The notes under the pieces: model-generated
The model's input: only the letters and a program-made list of their open reading frames with translations
What the model was told of the DNA's origin: nothing
Databases searched by the model: none
Position numbers and translations under genes: made by a program
Virus record (IMG/VR): IMGVR_UViG_3300033407_000005
Location: 1-64,000 of that record
Reading direction: 5' to 3' (one strand)
From: a virus
Lineage: Duplodnaviria > Caudoviricetes
DNA length: 64,000 bases
Shown: piece by piece, positions 16,501 through 57,978 of the stretch
Layout of the letters: every line of letters begins with the position of its first letter
Position numbering within the stretch: the first letter of the stretch is position 1

Positions 16501-16997
16501 CACGCCACCTCCCGGGAGGAGGGCCGGACCTCGCGGCGCGCCTCCGCCAGGGCCTCGATCCGACCCAGGCCGTGTGCCCTCAACTTGTTGTAGATACGGC
16601 GCTGATCCGGCGTAAGACCGGCAAGCGGGTTTTTCTCGGGGTCGGCGAACGCGGCCTGGATCGCCGCCGACATCTTCGCCCGCATCTCGGGGTCGGCCCA
16701 CGCGGCCTTCCTCGCCGCCGACATCTTCGCCCGCACCTCGGGGTCGGCCCACTGGGCCTTCGTCGCGGCCGACATCTTCGCCCGCACCTCGGGGTCGGCC
16801 AACGCGGCCTTGCTCGCGGCCGACATCTTCGCCCGCACCTCGGGGTCGGCGAACGCGGCCTGGATCGCCGCCGACATCTTCGCCCGCACCTCGGGGTCGG
16901 CCCACGCGGCCTTCCTCGCCGCCGACATCTTCGCCCGCACCTCGGGGTCGGCCCGGCGGGCGCGGACTTCTGGCGACAGGCGATAGGGGCGGGGCAT
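16500..16997 (-). CDS. 17-aa tandem-repeat protein (NUMOD3-like repeats)
   Basis: 6 x ADPEVRAKMSAAxxAxx; 51-bp DNA period 16635-16952. Confidence 0.75.
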   Translation of the reverse strand: MPRPYRLSPEVRARRADPEVRAKMSAARKAAWADPEVRAKMSAAIQAAFADPEVRAKMSAASKAALADPEVRAKMSAATKAQWADPEVRAKMSAARKAAWADPEMRAKMSAAIQAAFADPEKNPLAGLTPDQRRIYNKLRAHGLGRIEALAEARREVRPSSREVA

Positions 16998-19592: not shown

Positions 19593-19885
19593 GGCTCGTA
19601 CCCGCGCGCCATCCGCCGCCCGCCAACTCCGATCGCGGTCTCGACGAGTACGACGCCCCGCCCGGCGAAGAGGCCGGCAGGGAGATGATCCGGCTCGACG
19701 ATCACCTGAGCCCCGACGCGGTGAAGGAGCGCCTGGCGCATCTCGACCGGATCGCGGCCGGCGGGGCGTTGCAGCCGCCGCGGCGCCGGCGCGAGCCGGC
19801 CTGGCACGGCTGGCTCGTCATGTGGGTGCTCTGGCCGATCGCCGCGCTTTGCGCGGTCGGGCTGATGGTTGGGGTGGTTGGGTGA
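19589..19885 (+). CDS. hypothetical membrane protein
   Basis: C-terminal transmembrane helix. Confidence 0.6.
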   Translation: MRLVPARHPPPANSDRGLDEYDAPPGEEAGREMIRLDDHLSPDAVKERLAHLDRIAAGGALQPPRRRREPAWHGWLVMWVLWPIAALCAVGLMVGVVG

Positions 19886-20454
19886 TGGAAACCCTGCCTC
19901 TCGACCACGTCGAGCAACCCAACCCGCCGCCACGTCCTACGCTGGCGGACGAGAGCGTGAGGCGTGCCGCCGCCGAGGCGCTCATGCCCGAGATCATTCG
20001 GTGGCTTGGTAAAGATTGGCAGGAAGCCGAGCGCGAGGACTACATCGAAGACTTGATGGAAGTCGCTCACGTATGGGACGGCTACCAGGCCGCGCGGCTG
20101 CTGGAAAGTCGCAGCCATTGGTCGCCCGATCAGGAGCTTGTCGAGATCCTCGGGGGCGCGGACGGACCGATGGCGGCCGATCGGGCTATCGAGGCGTGGG
20201 TCGCGGCCAACAACATCACCCCGAAACTGGCGATCGGAGACACCGTTCGAGCGCGACCCCGCGGCGGAATCGGCCCAATCGTCAACATAGACGCGGCTCA
20301 TGCAACCTATACCGTGGCGACCACCGATTTTTTTCGGGAATACCCGGATCAGGCAGGCAAAGGCGGCGGTATCGTCGTTGCGTTCGAGGACTGTGCCCTA
20401 GCCGCCACATCCGAGGCGCCCAACCCCCAAGACACCGGCGCCGAACCCCGATGA
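19885..20454 (+). CDS. hypothetical protein
   Basis: 189-aa coupled ORF. Confidence 0.7.
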   Translation: METLPLDHVEQPNPPPRPTLADESVRRAAAEALMPEIIRWLGKDWQEAEREDYIEDLMEVAHVWDGYQAARLLESRSHWSPDQELVEILGGADGPMAADRAIEAWVAANNITPKLAIGDTVRARPRGGIGPIVNIDAAHATYTVATTDFFREYPDQAGKGGGIVVAFEDCALAATSEAPNPQDTGAEPR

Positions 20455-20747
20455 ACCCAAATCCCCCAACCTTACGACGCGGCCAAGGGCATCTTTACGG
20501 TGCCGTCCTGACTGGCGGAAAAGAAGCTGCTGGATTGAGTGCCGGACAAGACGGTGAGTGTCCGAGGACAGCCACGGGTCAACTGAGCCCGTCAAGATGT
20601 CAAACAACCCCGTCCGCCGGTGGAGGGCCTTTGTGTGGCGTCTTCCCTTCTACCCTCGCGACCGGCACCCTTTTTCCCCCACAAGGACATTCCCCCATGC
20701 CCTTCCCCCAGACCGGGCATGCGGCTGTCGCTGGAGGAGGTGGCTTG

Positions 20748-21215
20748 ATGCGCACCAAACGGCTGTCGAAAGAGCAGAAGTTACAGCTCCCCGCAGTGCT
20801 GGCCGCAATCGGCGGCGCCGCGACTATCGACGAGCTGGAAGAGGCATTTCAGGCCGGGCATCGCGCGCTCGACGATCACCCGTTCTCGACGGCTTGGAAT
20901 GAACGCGGCAACGCGATGCGCGCCCGCGGTTGGGATTTGATTGAAGCTGATCCTCAAGGCCACCTGATCCCGCGCCTCGGCGAGCGCCATAAGTTGTCAG
21001 TCGCTGGCGAGACGACGCGCGTCGGGTACGGACATAACGCCGCCGGCGTGCGGTGGGTTTGGGCTGAAGCCGAAGCGTGGGCTATCGGGCACCTGAAATC
21101 GCATGGCGTCGCCGAAGAAACGGCCAAGACCGTCTGGGGATGGTGCTTTGAATATCCCCATCGCGCTCTAAAGGTTCTTCGCAGGCGAGTGAAAGAACCA
21201 TGCTTATCCGGTTGA
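20748..21215 (+). CDS. hypothetical protein; last codons and stop come from cassette A1 left end
   Basis: GGAGGAGG RBS; ends KEP|CLSG*. Confidence 0.65.
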   Translation: MRTKRLSKEQKLQLPAVLAAIGGAATIDELEEAFQAGHRALDDHPFSTAWNERGNAMRARGWDLIEADPQGHLIPRLGERHKLSVAGETTRVGYGHNAAGVRWVWAEAEAWAIGHLKSHGVAEETAKTVWGWCFEYPHRALKVLRRRVKEPCLSG

Positions 21216-21633
21216 CACCCACACTACCTCTAGGAGTTAGGAAATGTCCGAAACCCGCGAATTTCCGACAGCCGCCATCGCCTCGCTTTCGACAGGCACC
21301 TTGCTGTGCAAGTTCAGCGACATACACGAGGCCGCTGAGTATTTGATGGGCCACCCAATCTGGACGCATCAATTCGCCGATAAGCAGCTTTTCGCTGATA
21401 TGCGAGCGATGATCATCGAACAGTGCCCTGGAATGCCCGCGAGAGACGGCCAAATCACGCCTGAGAACTGGCGCGAGAAGCTCGCCGAGTTGGTCGCGGA
21501 ATTAGGCCCCACACAGACAATCCGCAAAGGGGCCGGGTTGACCGCGATGCTGCCGACTGACGGCATCCCAGAGCACGTCGAATTGCTCGTGGTCAATGTT
21601 CCTTAAGGGTGGGTAACAACCGGATGAAGCATG
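21199..21633 (+). mobile_element. non-autonomous IS1595-like cassette A1 (ISSod11-type ends)
   Basis: left end CATGCTTATCCGGTTGACACCCA, degenerate right end ..CAACCGGATGAAGCATG; 8-bp GAAAGAAC at 21191 and 21634. Confidence 0.8.
21244..21606 (+). CDS. hypothetical protein, cargo of A1
   Basis: AGGAG RBS, lower GC, fills the cassette. Confidence 0.75.
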   Translation: MSETREFPTAAIASLSTGTLLCKFSDIHEAAEYLMGHPIWTHQFADKQLFADMRAMIIEQCPGMPARDGQITPENWREKLAELVAELGPTQTIRKGAGLTAMLPTDGIPEHVELLVVNVP

Positions 21634-21641
21634 GAAAGAAC

Positions 21642-22233
21642 CATGCTTATCCGGTTGACACCCAAGAAACCTTATACCCACTACATCTAGGAGCGGCAAA
21701 TGAACGTCAAAAAGCTCTACGAAATCCTTCGCGAGACAACTGTCCAACTGCGCAAGGGTGAAGTTTACGAAGGGACGCCAGAGCTTGTGGAACAAGCCAA
21801 GCGTGGCGACGAATTGAAGGGCGGCGGCGTTCTTGAAGTCTACGCCATGCCTCATGTCGCCGATGCCAATCCCGACATCGAAAAGGTCGATCTCGAATTT
21901 CTCGTAATCGGCGTCAATAAGGCCATCGCTGAAACGCGTAAGGCCGAATTGATCGAAATTCTTAAGGATTATCCTCAACCGGAGCGCCTTGCGGGCGGCC
22001 CGTCCTACATCGAAGTCGGTGCAGAGATCGGCGATCAAGGCGCGGCCTTCCAACTTTTTGCGCTCGGGAAAGTGCTCGGGCTTTGGGACGTAATCACGCC
22101 CGCGACGATGGGATTCGCGGGCGCGGAAGCGCGCCAGATGGCAGGCAGCGGTTTTGTCATGATGACGGGCTTCAAAGTGGCGGCCTAGGGGTAGTGGGTA
22201 TGGGAGCGGTTGGGTGTCAACCGGATAAGCATG
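21642..22233 (+). mobile_element. non-autonomous IS1595-like cassette A2 (ISSod11-type ends)
   Basis: perfect 23-bp IR (21642-21664 / 22211-22233); GAAAGAAC at 21634 and 22234. Confidence 0.88.
21700..22188 (+). CDS. hypothetical protein, cargo of A2
   Basis: AGGAG RBS, lower GC. Confidence 0.8.
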   Translation: MNVKKLYEILRETTVQLRKGEVYEGTPELVEQAKRGDELKGGGVLEVYAMPHVADANPDIEKVDLEFLVIGVNKAIAETRKAELIEILKDYPQPERLAGGPSYIEVGAEIGDQGAAFQLFALGKVLGLWDVITPATMGFAGAEARQMAGSGFVMMTGFKVAA

Positions 22234-22243
22234 GAAAGAACCG

Positions 22244-22558
22244 ATGATGCTGAGCACGCTGGCGCCCCCGTTTCTCGCCGCCGCCTTCGTGCTCGCGGGG
22301 TCGCTCGACTACGACCCGCGGATCCTGACGCTTCGCTGGCCCGACGGCCACGAGGAGCGGATCGCCGCGACCTCGCCCGATACCTGTGCGACGGCGGTCC
22401 GGGCGGTCGGGCTCGCCATCTGGCCGGCCGGCCAGCCGCCGCCGGTCAGCGCGTCGTGCCGGCCCGGGAACGGGTTTGCCGCCGTGGACCGTCAGCCCAC
22501 GGACTTGATCCGTGGGGCCCATTGCATCCGCGGCTTCAACTGCGAGCACCCCCGCTGA
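22244..22558 (+). CDS. putative exported protein
   Basis: signal-like N-terminus; REP-like hairpin 22496-22516 in frame. Confidence 0.55.
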   Translation: MMLSTLAPPFLAAAFVLAGSLDYDPRILTLRWPDGHEERIAATSPDTCATAVRAVGLAIWPAGQPPPVSASCRPGNGFAAVDRQPTDLIRGAHCIRGFNCEHPR

Positions 22559-22587
22559 CATCCACGACCTGTCGCCAGGAAAGGAAG

Positions 22588-23103
22588 GGGAATTATATAG
22601 ATGACTTCCTCTGCCGAAATTTACGCCATTTCGCTCTGGCAGCCGTGGGCATCCCTGATCGCGATCGGGGCCAAGCCATTCGAGACGCGCGACTGGTTCC
22701 CGCCGAAGTGGCTTATCGGGAAGCGAATAGCGATCCATGCCGCAATCAAGGCGATGCCGCGAGACGCGGAGGATCAACACGATTTCACCGAGGCGTTCGG
22801 CGGCCGAGGGTGGCGGGCCGTCGTGCCGAAGGGCGCGATCGTATGCACGGCGATCCTCGCTGGCGCTTACCAATGCGGCCATTCTGACCGCGAGAGCGTG
22901 AACGTGGTCCGGGCGATAACAGGATCGCGGGCACTTAACCGCATCGCGCTCGATACGTTCGGGGACTATGCGCCCGATCGTGTCGCGTGGTGGCTGACGG
23001 ACATCGAGCCGCTTGATCCGCCCATCCCAGAAAAGGGGCATCAAGGTTTTTGGAAGTTGAACGGACTCCTGGCATGACGCAGGTAGTCAAGTATGTAATT
23101 CCC
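22588..23103 (+). mobile_element. non-autonomous IS1595-like cassette B1 (ISNwi1-type ends)
   Basis: 19-bp IR with 3 mismatches (22588-22606 / 23085-23103); AAAGGAAG at 22580 and 23104. Confidence 0.82.
22601..23077 (+). CDS. ASCH-domain protein, cargo of B1
   Basis: AISLWQPWASLIAIGAKPFETR, IAIHAA, GAIVC, P.KGHQGFW. Confidence 0.9.
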   Translation: MTSSAEIYAISLWQPWASLIAIGAKPFETRDWFPPKWLIGKRIAIHAAIKAMPRDAEDQHDFTEAFGGRGWRAVVPKGAIVCTAILAGAYQCGHSDRESVNVVRAITGSRALNRIALDTFGDYAPDRVAWWLTDIEPLDPPIPEKGHQGFWKLNGLLA

Positions 23104-23116
23104 AAAGGAAGCACCC

Positions 23117-23419
23117 ATGACCAAAGCCGACATGATCACATTGATCGCCGCCTACTGCGGCATTTCCTCCCGAGCGCGCGCCGGCGAGGCGCTCGATGCC
23201 ATCCTCCACGAGATCGCCGGTGAATTGGTCCTTGGCAGGCGGGTGATCCTGCCGCATGTCGGCATTCTGGTCGCCACCGGGCCGATCGGCGCCCGCAAGG
23301 GGCGCAATCCGCGCACCGGCGCGGCGATCGAGATAAAGGCCTGCCGGCGCATCCGGTTTCGCCCGACCAAGTTGCTGAAGGCGAGGCTCGGCGCAACCAT
23401 CCCGACGGCGGCGGAATAG
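23117..23419 (+). CDS. HU/IHF-family DNA-binding protein
   Basis: MTKADMI..RKGRNPRTGAAIEIKA..FRPTKLLK. Confidence 0.9.
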   Translation: MTKADMITLIAAYCGISSRARAGEALDAILHEIAGELVLGRRVILPHVGILVATGPIGARKGRNPRTGAAIEIKACRRIRFRPTKLLKARLGATIPTAAE

Positions 23420-23430
23420 AGGCCCGGCCG

Positions 23431-23868
23431 ATGCTGTCGCGGAGTCATAAACTGTTCCACGCGATCGAGGCGGTGCTCGACATCGCCTGCCACCACCCCG
23501 CCGCCGTGCGCTCGGCCGACATCGCAAAGCGCGCCGGGGTCGACGGCCGCTATCTCGAGCCGGCGCTGCAGGCGCTGGCGGCCCACAATATCCTCGCGAG
23601 CAAGCGGGGGCGCGCCGTCGGCGGCTACCGGCTGACCCGGCCGCCGGCCAAGGTGACGCTCGGCGAGGTGGTGCGCGCGATCCGCAGCCTCGATGCGCCG
23701 GTCGCCGATCCGGCAAAGAGCCCGCTCGCCCTCCTGGTGGTCGGCCCGGTGCTGCGCGAGATCGAGGACACCGAAAACCTCGCGCTCGACAGGATATCGT
23801 TCGAGATGCTGTGCCGGATCGCGCGAACAGCCGCGGCGCCGGCCGGCGATGCGGAGGAGGCGGCATGA
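23431..23868 (+). CDS. Rrf2-family transcriptional regulator
   Basis: YLEPALQAL..SKRGRAVGGYRLTRPPAKVTLGEVVRAI. Confidence 0.88.
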   Translation: MLSRSHKLFHAIEAVLDIACHHPAAVRSADIAKRAGVDGRYLEPALQALAAHNILASKRGRAVGGYRLTRPPAKVTLGEVVRAIRSLDAPVADPAKSPLALLVVGPVLREIEDTENLALDRISFEMLCRIARTAAAPAGDAEEAA

Positions 23869-24044
23869 CCCGAGATCAAAAAGCCCTCAAGCTGCGCCAC
23901 GTGACCGGCGTATCCGCAAAGGAAGCATTTCGTTTTCTGCTGTTGTACGAGGCCGTCAAAGACATTGAGGCCGAGGCTGCTGCTGCCGAACGGATCGCGC
24001 GAACAGCCGCGGCGCCGGCCGACGATGCGGAGGAGGCGGCATAA
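23865..24044 (+). CDS. hypothetical protein; C-terminus duplicates the Rrf2 C-terminus
   Basis: RIARTAAAPAxDAEEAA in both. Confidence 0.5.
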   Translation: MTRDQKALKLRHVTGVSAKEAFRFLLLYEAVKDIEAEAAAAERIARTAAAPADDAEEAA

Positions 24045-24046
24045 AA

Positions 24047-24922
24047 ATGGCGGAGCATCTGATCGACGGTGAGTTTCAGAGCGATAAATATCCGACGACG
24101 CCGCGCGGCAAGGTTCCGCTGTCGTGCAAAGACATGATGGCGCAAGACCTGCTTTGGGAATATGCGCAGCGTCGCCGAAAGATTGACGCCGACTTTTCGG
24201 CTGATCTTGAAGCCGCCCTTCGCGCCCAAGGCTATGTACCGCTCGATGAGCCGGTGCCGGCCCTCGATGCGAAGCATCAGCAGGTGTCCGACCAGTGCCG
24301 CGCGGTCGCGCACATCGCCAAAACCATCAGCGAGGTGCATGGCGATCTCGCCAAGACTTATGCGCACCACGGCCCCGAAGCACATATGGACTTTGTTGGT
24401 CGTTTAACCGCCGAGCGCATGGAGGTGCTCGGTGATATGGCGAACGGTATGGACATCGTTCAGCCCGAAGATGAATGGCTGAACCCGATCTTTGAAGGCG
24501 TGCCCGCGCTACCAATGGACCCCGCCATGACCGGCCGCTTCGACGCCAAAACCGCCTTCGCCGCATTGTCGCCCGACGAGCAGCGCAGCATCGGCGAGGC
24601 CGGTCTCCTCCTCGCCTATTGCATCGACCGCAAGGAATTTCTGGACCCGCCCGGCCGCGCCAAGCCGGTACCCCGGACCGATCTCTACCGTGCCTTCGAG
24701 ACCGCCGAGAGCGAGGCCTACGAGTTGCTGCTCGACGCGGCGCGCGCCTGCGAGCTGCCGGAATTCGACGCATCGCCGCCGGCGCCGCCCGGCCTCGCAA
24801 TCTTCGGCATCGCGCAATGCGCGGTCTGCGGCTGCACCGAGGCGCACGCCTGCCCGGAAGGCTGCGGCTGGGCAACCGAGGCGCGGGATCTGTGCACGCG
24901 CTGCGCCGCAGCGGCGCATTGA
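24047..24922 (+). CDS. composite hypothetical protein with C-terminal Cys cluster
   Basis: CAVCGCTEAHACPEGCGW..LCTRC. Confidence 0.65.
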   Translation: MAEHLIDGEFQSDKYPTTPRGKVPLSCKDMMAQDLLWEYAQRRRKIDADFSADLEAALRAQGYVPLDEPVPALDAKHQQVSDQCRAVAHIAKTISEVHGDLAKTYAHHGPEAHMDFVGRLTAERMEVLGDMANGMDIVQPEDEWLNPIFEGVPALPMDPAMTGRFDAKTAFAALSPDEQRSIGEAGLLLAYCIDRKEFLDPPGRAKPVPRTDLYRAFETAESEAYELLLDAARACELPEFDASPPAPPGLAIFGIAQCAVCGCTEAHACPEGCGWATEARDLCTRCAAAAH

Positions 24923-24930
24923 CACTGAAG

Positions 24931-24946
24931 CATGCTTATCCGGTTG
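24931..24946 (+). mobile_element. solo family-A end
   Basis: CATGCTTATCCGGTTG; no partner found. Confidence 0.6.
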
Positions 24947-24963
24947 TCGCTCAACGAGGCTAG

Positions 24964-25455
24964 ATGTTGATGACCAAAAAAGCACGACAATCTCTCATTG
25001 ATTTCCTGCTGGCGTGTGCCCATCGGCGGGTTGATGCGCGGGCGGCGGTTACTCCGTGCTTCTATTACGAGTGTCGCGAGTGCGGCGGCTCTGATCTAAA
25101 CCGAGAAGATTTGCACGTCCGACCGACGCTCGCTGGGGTGACGCACAGGCCCAACTGTCTTGTCGGGCAGTACCGCGCTATCGCAGAGAATGACATGCTC
25201 ACCACGGAAGCAAACACACAACTGATCGCGGAACGCGATGCGATGAAGGGGCTGATGAAGAGACGAGCAGTTTTCATTCTTGGACTGTTGTGGAATGCGG
25301 CCAAGAAGCAGGAAGCGATTGAGAGAGAAGTCGCCGGGGAGCGGGAGGCGCGGCACAAACTAGAAGCCGCACTCACCGGGAAAGACAAAGCGATGGGCGT
25401 GCTGTTCGAGCGGCTGACAGCTGCGGGCGTCGATTGCTCCGACCTGATCCCATAG
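24964..25455 (+). CDS. hypothetical protein (Zn-ribbon plus coiled coil)
   Basis: YECRECGG; lower GC. Confidence 0.6.
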   Translation: MLMTKKARQSLIDFLLACAHRRVDARAAVTPCFYYECRECGGSDLNREDLHVRPTLAGVTHRPNCLVGQYRAIAENDMLTTEANTQLIAERDAMKGLMKRRAVFILGLLWNAAKKQEAIEREVAGEREARHKLEAALTGKDKAMGVLFERLTAAGVDCSDLIP

Positions 25456-26510: not shown

Positions 26511-26870
26511 CGCGATCCGGGCGCTGCTCGGCTGGTGGGGCGAGCGGACCTGCGATTACGTGAGGCCCGAGACGTGCCGGGCTTATGTGAAGTGGCGGTC
26601 AATTGGCGGTCAATTGGCGGTCAATTGGCGGTCAAGGGACTAAATTTAGCCGATAGGCTAAACGATACTAAATATCGGCACGGCGCCGCTTCCACCGCCG
26701 GCAGAGAACTCACCGTCCTCCGTACCGCCCTCGGCTACGCGCACAGGAACGGCAAGCTGATCGACCGCCCGTTCGTCGAGCTGCCGCCGCGCCCGCCCGG
26801 TCGCGACCGCTGGCTGACCCGCTCCGAGGCCGCCGCGCTCTTGTGGGAGAGCCGTCGCGATCCCCATTGC
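26511..26870 (+). pseudogene. tyrosine integrase remnant, frameshifted
   Basis: AIRALLGWWGE..CRAYVKW then STAGRELTVLRTAL..PPRPPGRDRWLTRSEAAALL; no catalytic domain. Confidence 0.75.
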
Positions 26871-28551: not shown

Positions 28552-28580
28552 CTAAATTTAGTCCCTTGACCGCCAATTGA
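28227..28580 (+). CDS. B2 cargo, probably truncated; reads through the right end
   Basis: ATG inside left IR; last residues encoded by IR and flank. Confidence 0.5.
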   Translation: MTSSNSGEKQMLDKLGNVMRGAEIDREVIDSGLAVLTRQVRETWLATDYPKAMRSDGAQFRHACLHATKAIGKITALIDHADHERLDDPRSPGREPRAIRRGSHVYNSPKFSPLTAN

Positions 28581-28687
28581 CCGCCAATTGACCGCCACTT
28601 CACATAAGCCCGGCACGTCTCGGGCCTCACGTAATCGCAGGTCCGCTCGCCCCACCAGCCGAGCAGCGCCCGGATCGCGTAGCCGGC

Positions 28688-57814: not shown

Positions 57815-57890
57815 CCTCCGTGATCTCAATCTCATCCGCCCCGGCCTGTCGGCTGTCGTCTACCATATCTAGCACCTGTTATGCAAAAGC

Positions 57891-57900
57891 TATAATTCCC
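57891..57900 (-). mobile_element. solo ISNwi1-type end
   Basis: reverse complement GGGAATTATA. Confidence 0.5.
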
Positions 57901-57978
57901 CCTTCCAGATACGTCCGCGCAGTTTCCTGATCCGGGAACATCGCGAAAAGCTGAAAGGTTGAAAGGTTGCTGGACTAA

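Follow-up and report, generated by a model that had tools for sequence, protein, structure and literature searches.

Positions 21191-22241 of a 64,000-nucleotide stretch of viral DNA, hereafter called the window, contain two small single-gene units, A1 and A2, which lie between two phage genes. The window corresponds to positions 1-64000 of the 75.7-kb IMG/VR virus record IMGVR_UViG_3300033407_000005, and prophage features are seen in it, among them genes for an integrase, for HU and for an Rrf2 regulator. Based on the comparisons described here, we suggest that A1 and A2 are very probably non-autonomous, ISAcr1-like mobile insertion cassettes of the IS1595 family of insertion sequences (IS), and that they were stacked by successive insertion at one target.

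Layout of the stacked cassettes

The region is built in the order target-site duplication (TSD), inverted repeat (IR), gene, IR, TSD, IR, gene, IR, TSD, as the initial annotation had described it, and its features are located as follows.

21191-21198, no strand: TSD copy 1, GAAAGAAC, located as an 8-mer match
21199..21221, plus strand: left terminal IR of A1, a perfect 23-mer with TTGACA
21232..21236, plus strand: Shine-Dalgarno sequence AGGAG in the left arm of A1, 7 nt 5' of the cargo ATG
21244..21606, plus strand: cargo gene of A1, 120 amino acids (aa), DUF7736
21610..21633, minus strand: right terminal IR of A1, decayed
21634..21641, no strand: TSD copy 2, GAAAGAAC, the loop of a 54-nt near-palindrome formed by the abutting ends
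21642..21664, plus strand: left terminal IR of A2, a perfect 23-mer
21689..21693, plus strand: Shine-Dalgarno sequence AGGAG in the left arm of A2, 6 nt 5' of the cargo ATG
21700..22188, plus strand: cargo gene of A2, 162 aa, without family assignment
22211..22233, minus strand: right terminal IR of A2, a perfect 23-mer, with an imperfect arm extension back to 22184
22234..22241, no strand: TSD copy 3, GAAAGAAC, 2 bp 5' of the start codon of open reading frame (ORF) 22244
20748..21215, plus strand: upstream phage gene (ORF 20748), 155 aa as now read
22244..22558, plus strand: downstream phage gene (ORF 22244), 104 aa, with a hydrophobic N-terminus

A1 extends over 21199-21633 (435 bp) and A2 over 21642-22233 (592 bp), and the G+C content of the cassettes is 0.49-0.57 compared with 0.62-0.76 in the flanks. 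The ends start with CATGCTTATCCGGTTGAC, and the complete 23-mer CATGCTTATCCGGTTGACACCCA occurs exactly at 21199 (+), 21642 (+) and 22233 (-), with 0 matches in 100 shuffles. Outside the three TSD sites, GAAAGAAC has one more copy in the 64 kb. The two left ends had been noted as alike over 23 bp; the 23-mer is exact in both, and the left junctions are identical over 31 bp when the 8-mer is counted. The remaining end features recorded in the initial annotation are likewise present. The right end of A2 is an exact 23-mer followed by an imperfect extension, with the two arms pairing over 51 nt at 82% complementarity and carrying ATACCCACTAC on both sides. Compared with the perfect 23-mer, the right end of A1 has two substitutions and an additional G. 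Finally, the last four codons of ORF 20748 and its stop codon (...VKEPCLSG*, TGA at 21213-21215) come from the left end of A1.

The three identical 8-mers call for two successive insertions at one target, the second using a copy left by the first, and no other reading accounts for them as well. Alternatively, the pair could have moved in as a single composite unit by means of its two outer ends, which are perfect while one inner end is decayed. In that case, however, the identity of the inner 8-mer with the newly made duplication would be a matter of chance, at 1 in 65,536, and would be rare even with a target preference, so we regard a composite origin as very improbable.

Relatives with the same ends and the IS1595-family transposase

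We searched for the end family as the exact 18-mer CATGCTTATCCGGTTGAC in viral contigs and prokaryotic genomes, and it was found in 96 stretches of other viral contigs and in 102 stretches of prokaryotic genomes from many phyla. When we aligned these stretches on the 18-mer, the sequences outside CATG were unrelated between loci and approximately 23 bp inside were conserved, with a sharp boundary at CATG. Pairing of inverted ends gave 84-90 non-redundant elements, viral and prokaryotic, with perfect 8-bp duplications, and the duplicated 8-mer differs from locus to locus. These elements measure 195-2636 bp and fall into size classes. The smallest, at 195-250 bp, have no coding sequence; from about 250 to 1200 bp there are cassettes whose interior is filled by a single ORF; minimal IS measure about 1.0-1.2 kb; and in the largest, at 1.65-2.6 kb, one or two passenger genes precede an ORF of 337-366 aa. 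This ORF is an IS1595-family transposase, as it matches PF12762 at E ~1e-32 together with the PF12760 zinc ribbon, and scores 182-186 bits against NF033547 (cut-off 75). The autonomous relatives that encode it carry identical ends of 18-25 bp. The initial annotation had treated A1 and A2 as cassettes inserted at a target, and the independent relatives with 8-bp duplications, together with the transposase in the long same-end copies, show them to be genuine transposon cassettes. No transposase was found in the 75.7-kb record, A1 and A2 included, as expected of non-autonomous derivatives.

We also considered that the repeats might be regulatory hairpins, operators or promoter-stem-loop modules, of the kind by which genes are shuffled through recombination in T4-type phages. 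The abutting ends at the A1/A2 junction do fold strongly as RNA (-35.1 kcal/mol, z = -9.5), and the end holds TTGACA, followed 17 nt later by a TAGTAT-like -10 hexamer in many autonomous relatives. On the contrary, a scan for a complete sigma-70 promoter found none in A1 or A2, where the TAGTAT-like -10 is missing, and the outer ends are half-sites that cannot form hairpins. The exact 8-bp duplications of the 84-90 relatives and the IS1595 transposase of the long copies also speak against regulatory modules, and the variable 8-mers rule out a longer conserved motif. A regulatory origin of the repeats is thus very hard to reconcile with these data, and we consider it highly unlikely.

Among named elements, the nearest is ISAcr1, an IS1595 element (RefSeq name) of Acidiphilium cryptum and A. 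multivorum plasmids. Its ends, CTTGCCTATCCGGTTG, are similar to those in the window, CATGCTTATCCGGTTG, agreeing at 14 of the first 16 positions, and ISAcr1 shares the subterminal CCCACTAnATnTAG box with A1 and A2. The terminal four bases are CTTG in ISAcr1 and CATG in A1 and A2. The ends, the box and the 8-bp duplication of ISAcr1, CAATATAT, were read directly from its sequence, and its transposase is 47-68% identical to those of the autonomous elements that have the exact ends of the window. At about 1.08 kb, ISAcr1 is a minimal, autonomous IS with a transposase only, whereas A1 and A2 have none and bring in one unrelated gene each. All features that define the IS1595 family and are readable in sequence are present in the relatives or the cassettes: the DDE transposase with its catalytic domain and N-terminal zinc ribbon in the autonomous relatives, the 8-bp duplication in the window (three copies), the 84-90 relatives and ISAcr1, and the related terminal inverted repeats.

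The features of a mobile insertion cassette are found as well, namely the ends, the duplication, a passenger, no transposase, and autonomous relatives elsewhere. Such cassettes have been described as MIC231 in the Bacillus cereus group (De Palmenaer et al. 2004, as cited in PMC3129680), and passenger-gene IS as "transporter IS" (Siguier, Gagnevin and Chandler 2009, as cited in PMC3129680); IS1595 is the family for which passenger-gene IS were described (PMC3129680; PMC7986276). MIC231 shares with A1 and A2 the IS-type inverted repeats around passengers, the lack of a transposase, the duplicated target and a cognate autonomous IS, but it derives from IS231 of the IS4 family. A1 and A2 differ further from MIC231 in that they lie in a phage genome, have a conserved arm with a ribosome-binding site, and share one target as a stack. 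The insertion of IS in tandem has been recognised before (PMC3129680), and IS and MITEs (miniature inverted-repeat transposable elements) have been reported to be rare in phage genomes (PMC11602168). The end motif itself was not found in the searchable literature. As far as our literature search reached, there is no description of how this IS1595 lineage has spread through phage contigs, of a ribosome-binding site forming part of the arm, or of the match between the end terminus and the preferred target flank.

Two other classes of element were rejected for A1 and A2. A MITE does not fit, because ORFs with homologues, 120 and 162 aa long, take up nearly the whole of the two units, and the true coding-free members of 195-250 bp lie at other loci. 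Integron-type gene cassettes, with the imperfect palindromes as attC sites, resemble the arrangement in that promoter-less single-gene units stand in tandem with an imperfect palindrome between them. However, the outer boundaries here are half-palindromes with exactly duplicated 8-mers, the long relatives encode a DDE transposase and not IntI, and a phage-type gene at a distance of 8 kb is the sole integrase of the window. We therefore find an integron origin barely credible.

Several observations concern the wider family. The genomes that carry the 18-mer (loci L101-L202) are labelled as Nitrospiraceae, Alphaproteobacteria, Desulfobacteraceae, Planctomycetota, Methylomirabilota and Acidobacteriota, and further as Bacteroidales, Verrucomicrobiota, Chloroflexota, Actinomycetes and others. 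The transposases that go with this shared end are only 41-77% identical to each other, and the 18-bp end is unusually conserved for such a broad distribution. At locus L090 (5080-5330), an element of 235 bp with the duplication GAAGGCTT sits in the first bases of another, decayed end, which is a case of nesting and not of stacking. In the window itself, within 24923-25455, a third left end of the same family, CATGCTTATCCGGTTGTCGCTCA, with 3 mismatches, lies directly 5' of a low-G+C ORF (24964-25455, 163 aa, without family assignment). No convincing right end or matching 8-mer was found after this ORF, and the segment is probably a decayed cassette or a solo end. In addition, a weak tblastn match at 57825-57959 was obtained with five of six ISAcr1-like transposases (28-33% identity over 40-47 aa, E 0.6-3); it covers transposase residues ~95-144 and adjoins a TATAATTCCCC motif, and may represent a short relic of an IS1595-type transposase belonging to a different subgroup.

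Target preference and formation of the stack

The target logo, symmetrised over 83-90 sites, is the palindrome (A/G)T-N-GWWYRWWC-N-A(T/C). The preference is reproduced when the two subsets are taken separately, T at position -1 being found in 55% of the viral subset (p = 1e-14) and 59% of the genome subset (p = 7e-10). GAAAGAAC matches the logo at seven of the eight inner positions, but the original outer flanks do not match. Since the CATG terminus of a resident end puts A and T at the preferred outer positions of the target, a resident cassette would turn a mediocre site into two good ones. When we scored the sites with a position-weight matrix built without the window, the ancestral site gave 2.5 bits, compared with 5.7-5.8 bits for each copy beside a resident end. 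As likelihood weights from a model, and not as measurements, the corresponding shares of later insertions over the 64-kb window are about 0.24% for the two copies, 0.0125% for the ancestral site and 0.003% for two random positions, and the picture was similar when the background was taken from the window. Based on this model, we suggest that the first insertion raises the quality of the target beside it, that is, that the end mimics the target.

The course of events may then have been as follows. An IS1595-type DDE transposase from an autonomous relative with the same ends would move the cassettes in trans, and staggered cuts 8 bp apart would duplicate the target. The first cassette would have entered at GAAAGAAC, at the boundary of two early-operon genes, 2 bp before the start of ORF 22244. 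The transposase would prefer a palindromic target, which the CATG of the resident end recreates, and the second cassette would have entered one of the two GAAAGAAC copies, giving three 8-mers and a head-to-tail stack.

Comparable arrangements were seen elsewhere in the family. Ends that abut at exactly 8 bp occur in 3 of 306 distinct outward flanks of good ends, namely in the window and at L042 (5676/5685) and L153 (6060/6069), and the other short end-to-end spacings, 1 bp and 45 bp, were each seen once. At L042 the 8-mer is kept on both sides of an intact element, and at L153 the 8-mers are partly decayed. The initial annotation had proposed sequential insertion at a preferred site producing a growing array. 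The first part agrees with the three 8-mers, the logo and the stacks at L042 and L153. The growth of an array is not borne out, as no stack of more than two cassettes was seen and the contig scans gave no allele with 0, 1 or 3 cassettes.

Here, we need to consider several points that weigh against stacking of mobile cassettes by successive insertion. First, the observed stacking frequency is ~1-2%, and our model predicts about 8-fold less; the explanation is either an over-simple model or some other way in which resident ends draw insertions. Second, since no alternative allele turned up, the order of events is reconstructed and not observed. Neither the empty-site junction nor the left flank joined to the 8-mer had an exact match in metagenome contigs, from which the record of the window itself may be excluded; viral contigs scanned with peptide patterns from ORF 20748, from its homologue P0002 and from ORF 22244 gave no empty-site relative; and isolated phages, searched by blastn with 19600-24900, showed a match only to about 100 bp of the next gene. 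Third, insertions are not enriched next to gene starts (27 of 72, versus 33% in controls) in what was a crude test. Fourth, tblastn over all fetched loci found neither A1 nor A2 with the same cargo at another site. Fifth, the 11 homologues of the A2 cargo (40-70% identity) are ordinary phage genes in other viral contigs that lack these ends. The single homologue of the A1 cargo in other viral contigs likewise stands in an ordinary operon context without the ends, and the cargos are accordingly captured phage genes. Finally, once the empty site is reconstructed, ORF 20748 has no stop codon, which is odd for a plain gene boundary.

The stack could also have been built by unequal homologous recombination, through the shared 31 bp, between two phage lineages that carried different cassettes at the same site. 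The identity of the left junctions, the mosaic nature of phage genomes and the shortfall of the modelled stacking frequency all suit this explanation. On the other hand, two insertions at the same 8 bp would still be needed, so that recombination adds a step; no single-cassette allele was found; and 31 bp is short for homologous exchange. It seems to us quite improbable, and we favour successive insertion.

The decay of the right end of A1 had been taken as a sign that A1 is the older cassette. This is one possible reading. In all three stacks, however, one of the two abutting ends has at least three changes and its neighbour is perfect, which fits an unstable junction equally well. Among ordinary elements the worse end has at least three mismatches in 15 of 78, and the chance of finding decayed inner ends in three stacks out of three is ~0.007, a figure subject to the small sample and to ascertainment. 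Since the left end of A1 is perfect although its right end is decayed, uniform ageing is not obvious. A perfect junction of two ends would be a 54-nt palindrome, and abutted IS ends are known substrates in some other IS families. Based on these observations, inner-end decay may be tolerated or even favoured.

Cargo genes, flanking genes and comparison with integron arrays

The A1 cargo belongs to PF24875 (DUF7736, E 8e-17) and to phrog_15963. Nothing usable came out of Pfam, PHROGs, NCBIfam or the ESM Atlas for the A2 cargo. Of 50 family cargos and passengers, DNA methyltransferases alone recur (four N6_N4_Mtase and others), and most have no family. In the left arm of A2, the 23-bp end is followed by about 16 variable bases and then by a conserved box that ends in CTAGGAG, with the cargo ATG 6-7 nt further on. 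The cassette at locus L019 is laid out in the same way, as is A1 except that it lacks the 16-bp spacer; the box in the left arm of A1, CTAnnTCTAGGAG, is common to A2 and the L019 cassette. Since this conserved arm carries AGGAG, it supplies the cargo with a Shine-Dalgarno sequence. Both cargos are oriented as the operon, and they are probably read from the operon transcript via these ribosome-binding sites, as judged from the arms. In the passenger-bearing elements, the left end is predicted to form a promoter close to consensus, from which the passenger, in many cases a DNA methyltransferase, and after it the transposase would be read. The left ends at L006, L012, L021, L025, L038, L039, L065 and others have TTGACA, a 17-nt spacer and TAGTAT, TAGTTT or TAGGTT, often with TG before it.

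The initial annotation had further stated that removal of both cassettes joins ORF 20748 in frame to ORF 22244. The frame arithmetic holds: when 21199-22241 (1043 bp, mod 3 = 2) is removed, the ATG at 22244 is in frame with ORF 20748 and no stop lies between, and the right-hand 8-mer copy restores the bases 5' of the ORF 22244 start. The homologues, however, do not point to a split gene. Those of ORF 22244 (n = 10, 50-73% identity) are stand-alone proteins of 79-109 aa, each beginning no more than three residues from the same hydrophobic N-terminus, and the search for fused homologues found no longer relatives of this family. Most of the ~50 homologues of ORF 20748 have 140-160 aa and end 5-15 residues after YPHRAL, like the copy in the window. 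A subset of 229-250 aa bears a conserved zinc-ribbon tail; a profile of the ORF 22244 family did not match the C-terminal extensions of these long forms, and the tail of homologue P0003 is also unrelated to ORF 22244. The G+C content at third codon positions is 0.69 in ORF 20748 versus 0.91 in ORF 22244. A fused gene split by the insertions was therefore rejected as the likely reading, on the grounds that ORF 22244 has no longer relatives and that the tails of the long ORF 20748 forms are unrelated to it. The in-frame join is probably incidental, because a third of all joins would be in frame and G+C-rich DNA has few stops, and a true ancestral fusion appears unlikely to us, if still worth bearing in mind given that the reconstructed empty site has no stop. 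The missing stop would be explained by a small frameshift near the 3' end of ORF 20748 after the insertion, given the out-of-frame TGA at 21190-21192.

In outcome, A1 and A2 resemble integron gene cassettes, since small, mostly promoter-less single genes stand side by side in one transcription unit. The mechanism differs, with attC x attI recombination by a tyrosine recombinase in integrons and DDE transposition with 8-bp duplications here, and, compared with integron arrays, nothing longer than two cassettes was seen. As a more speculative extension, ISAcr1-like cassettes might constitute a transposon-built gene-cassette system in phages, in which the arm gives the ribosome-binding site, CATG recreates the target, and cassettes accrete head to tail in an operon. 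Inner-end decay, with the perfect palindrome being unstable or cut by the transposase, would then weld neighbours into a multi-gene cargo that functions like an integron array. We hold this extension as doubtful.

The findings matter in that this IS1595 lineage carries single accessory genes into phages, and the stack shows that cassettes can accumulate at a gene boundary with the neighbouring genes intact. The target logo offers a simple, testable reason why a first insertion would invite a second. If the proposed course is true, phages would have a way to acquire small accessory genes and bring them together, and an end, 8 bp and a further end would make a practical signature for such genes in metagenomes.

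Two repeat structures were also noted elsewhere in the window. A perfect 114-nt inverted duplication (26511-26624 and 28566-28679) has arms 1941 bp apart, contains three tandem GGTCAATTGGC units, and encloses a number of small ORFs together with another cassette family; the segment may be invertible, or the structure may be an artefact of assembly. At 16584-16991, six tandem copies of a 51-bp unit, with 68-91% identity over a 153-nt reference, lie in a coding-dense region.

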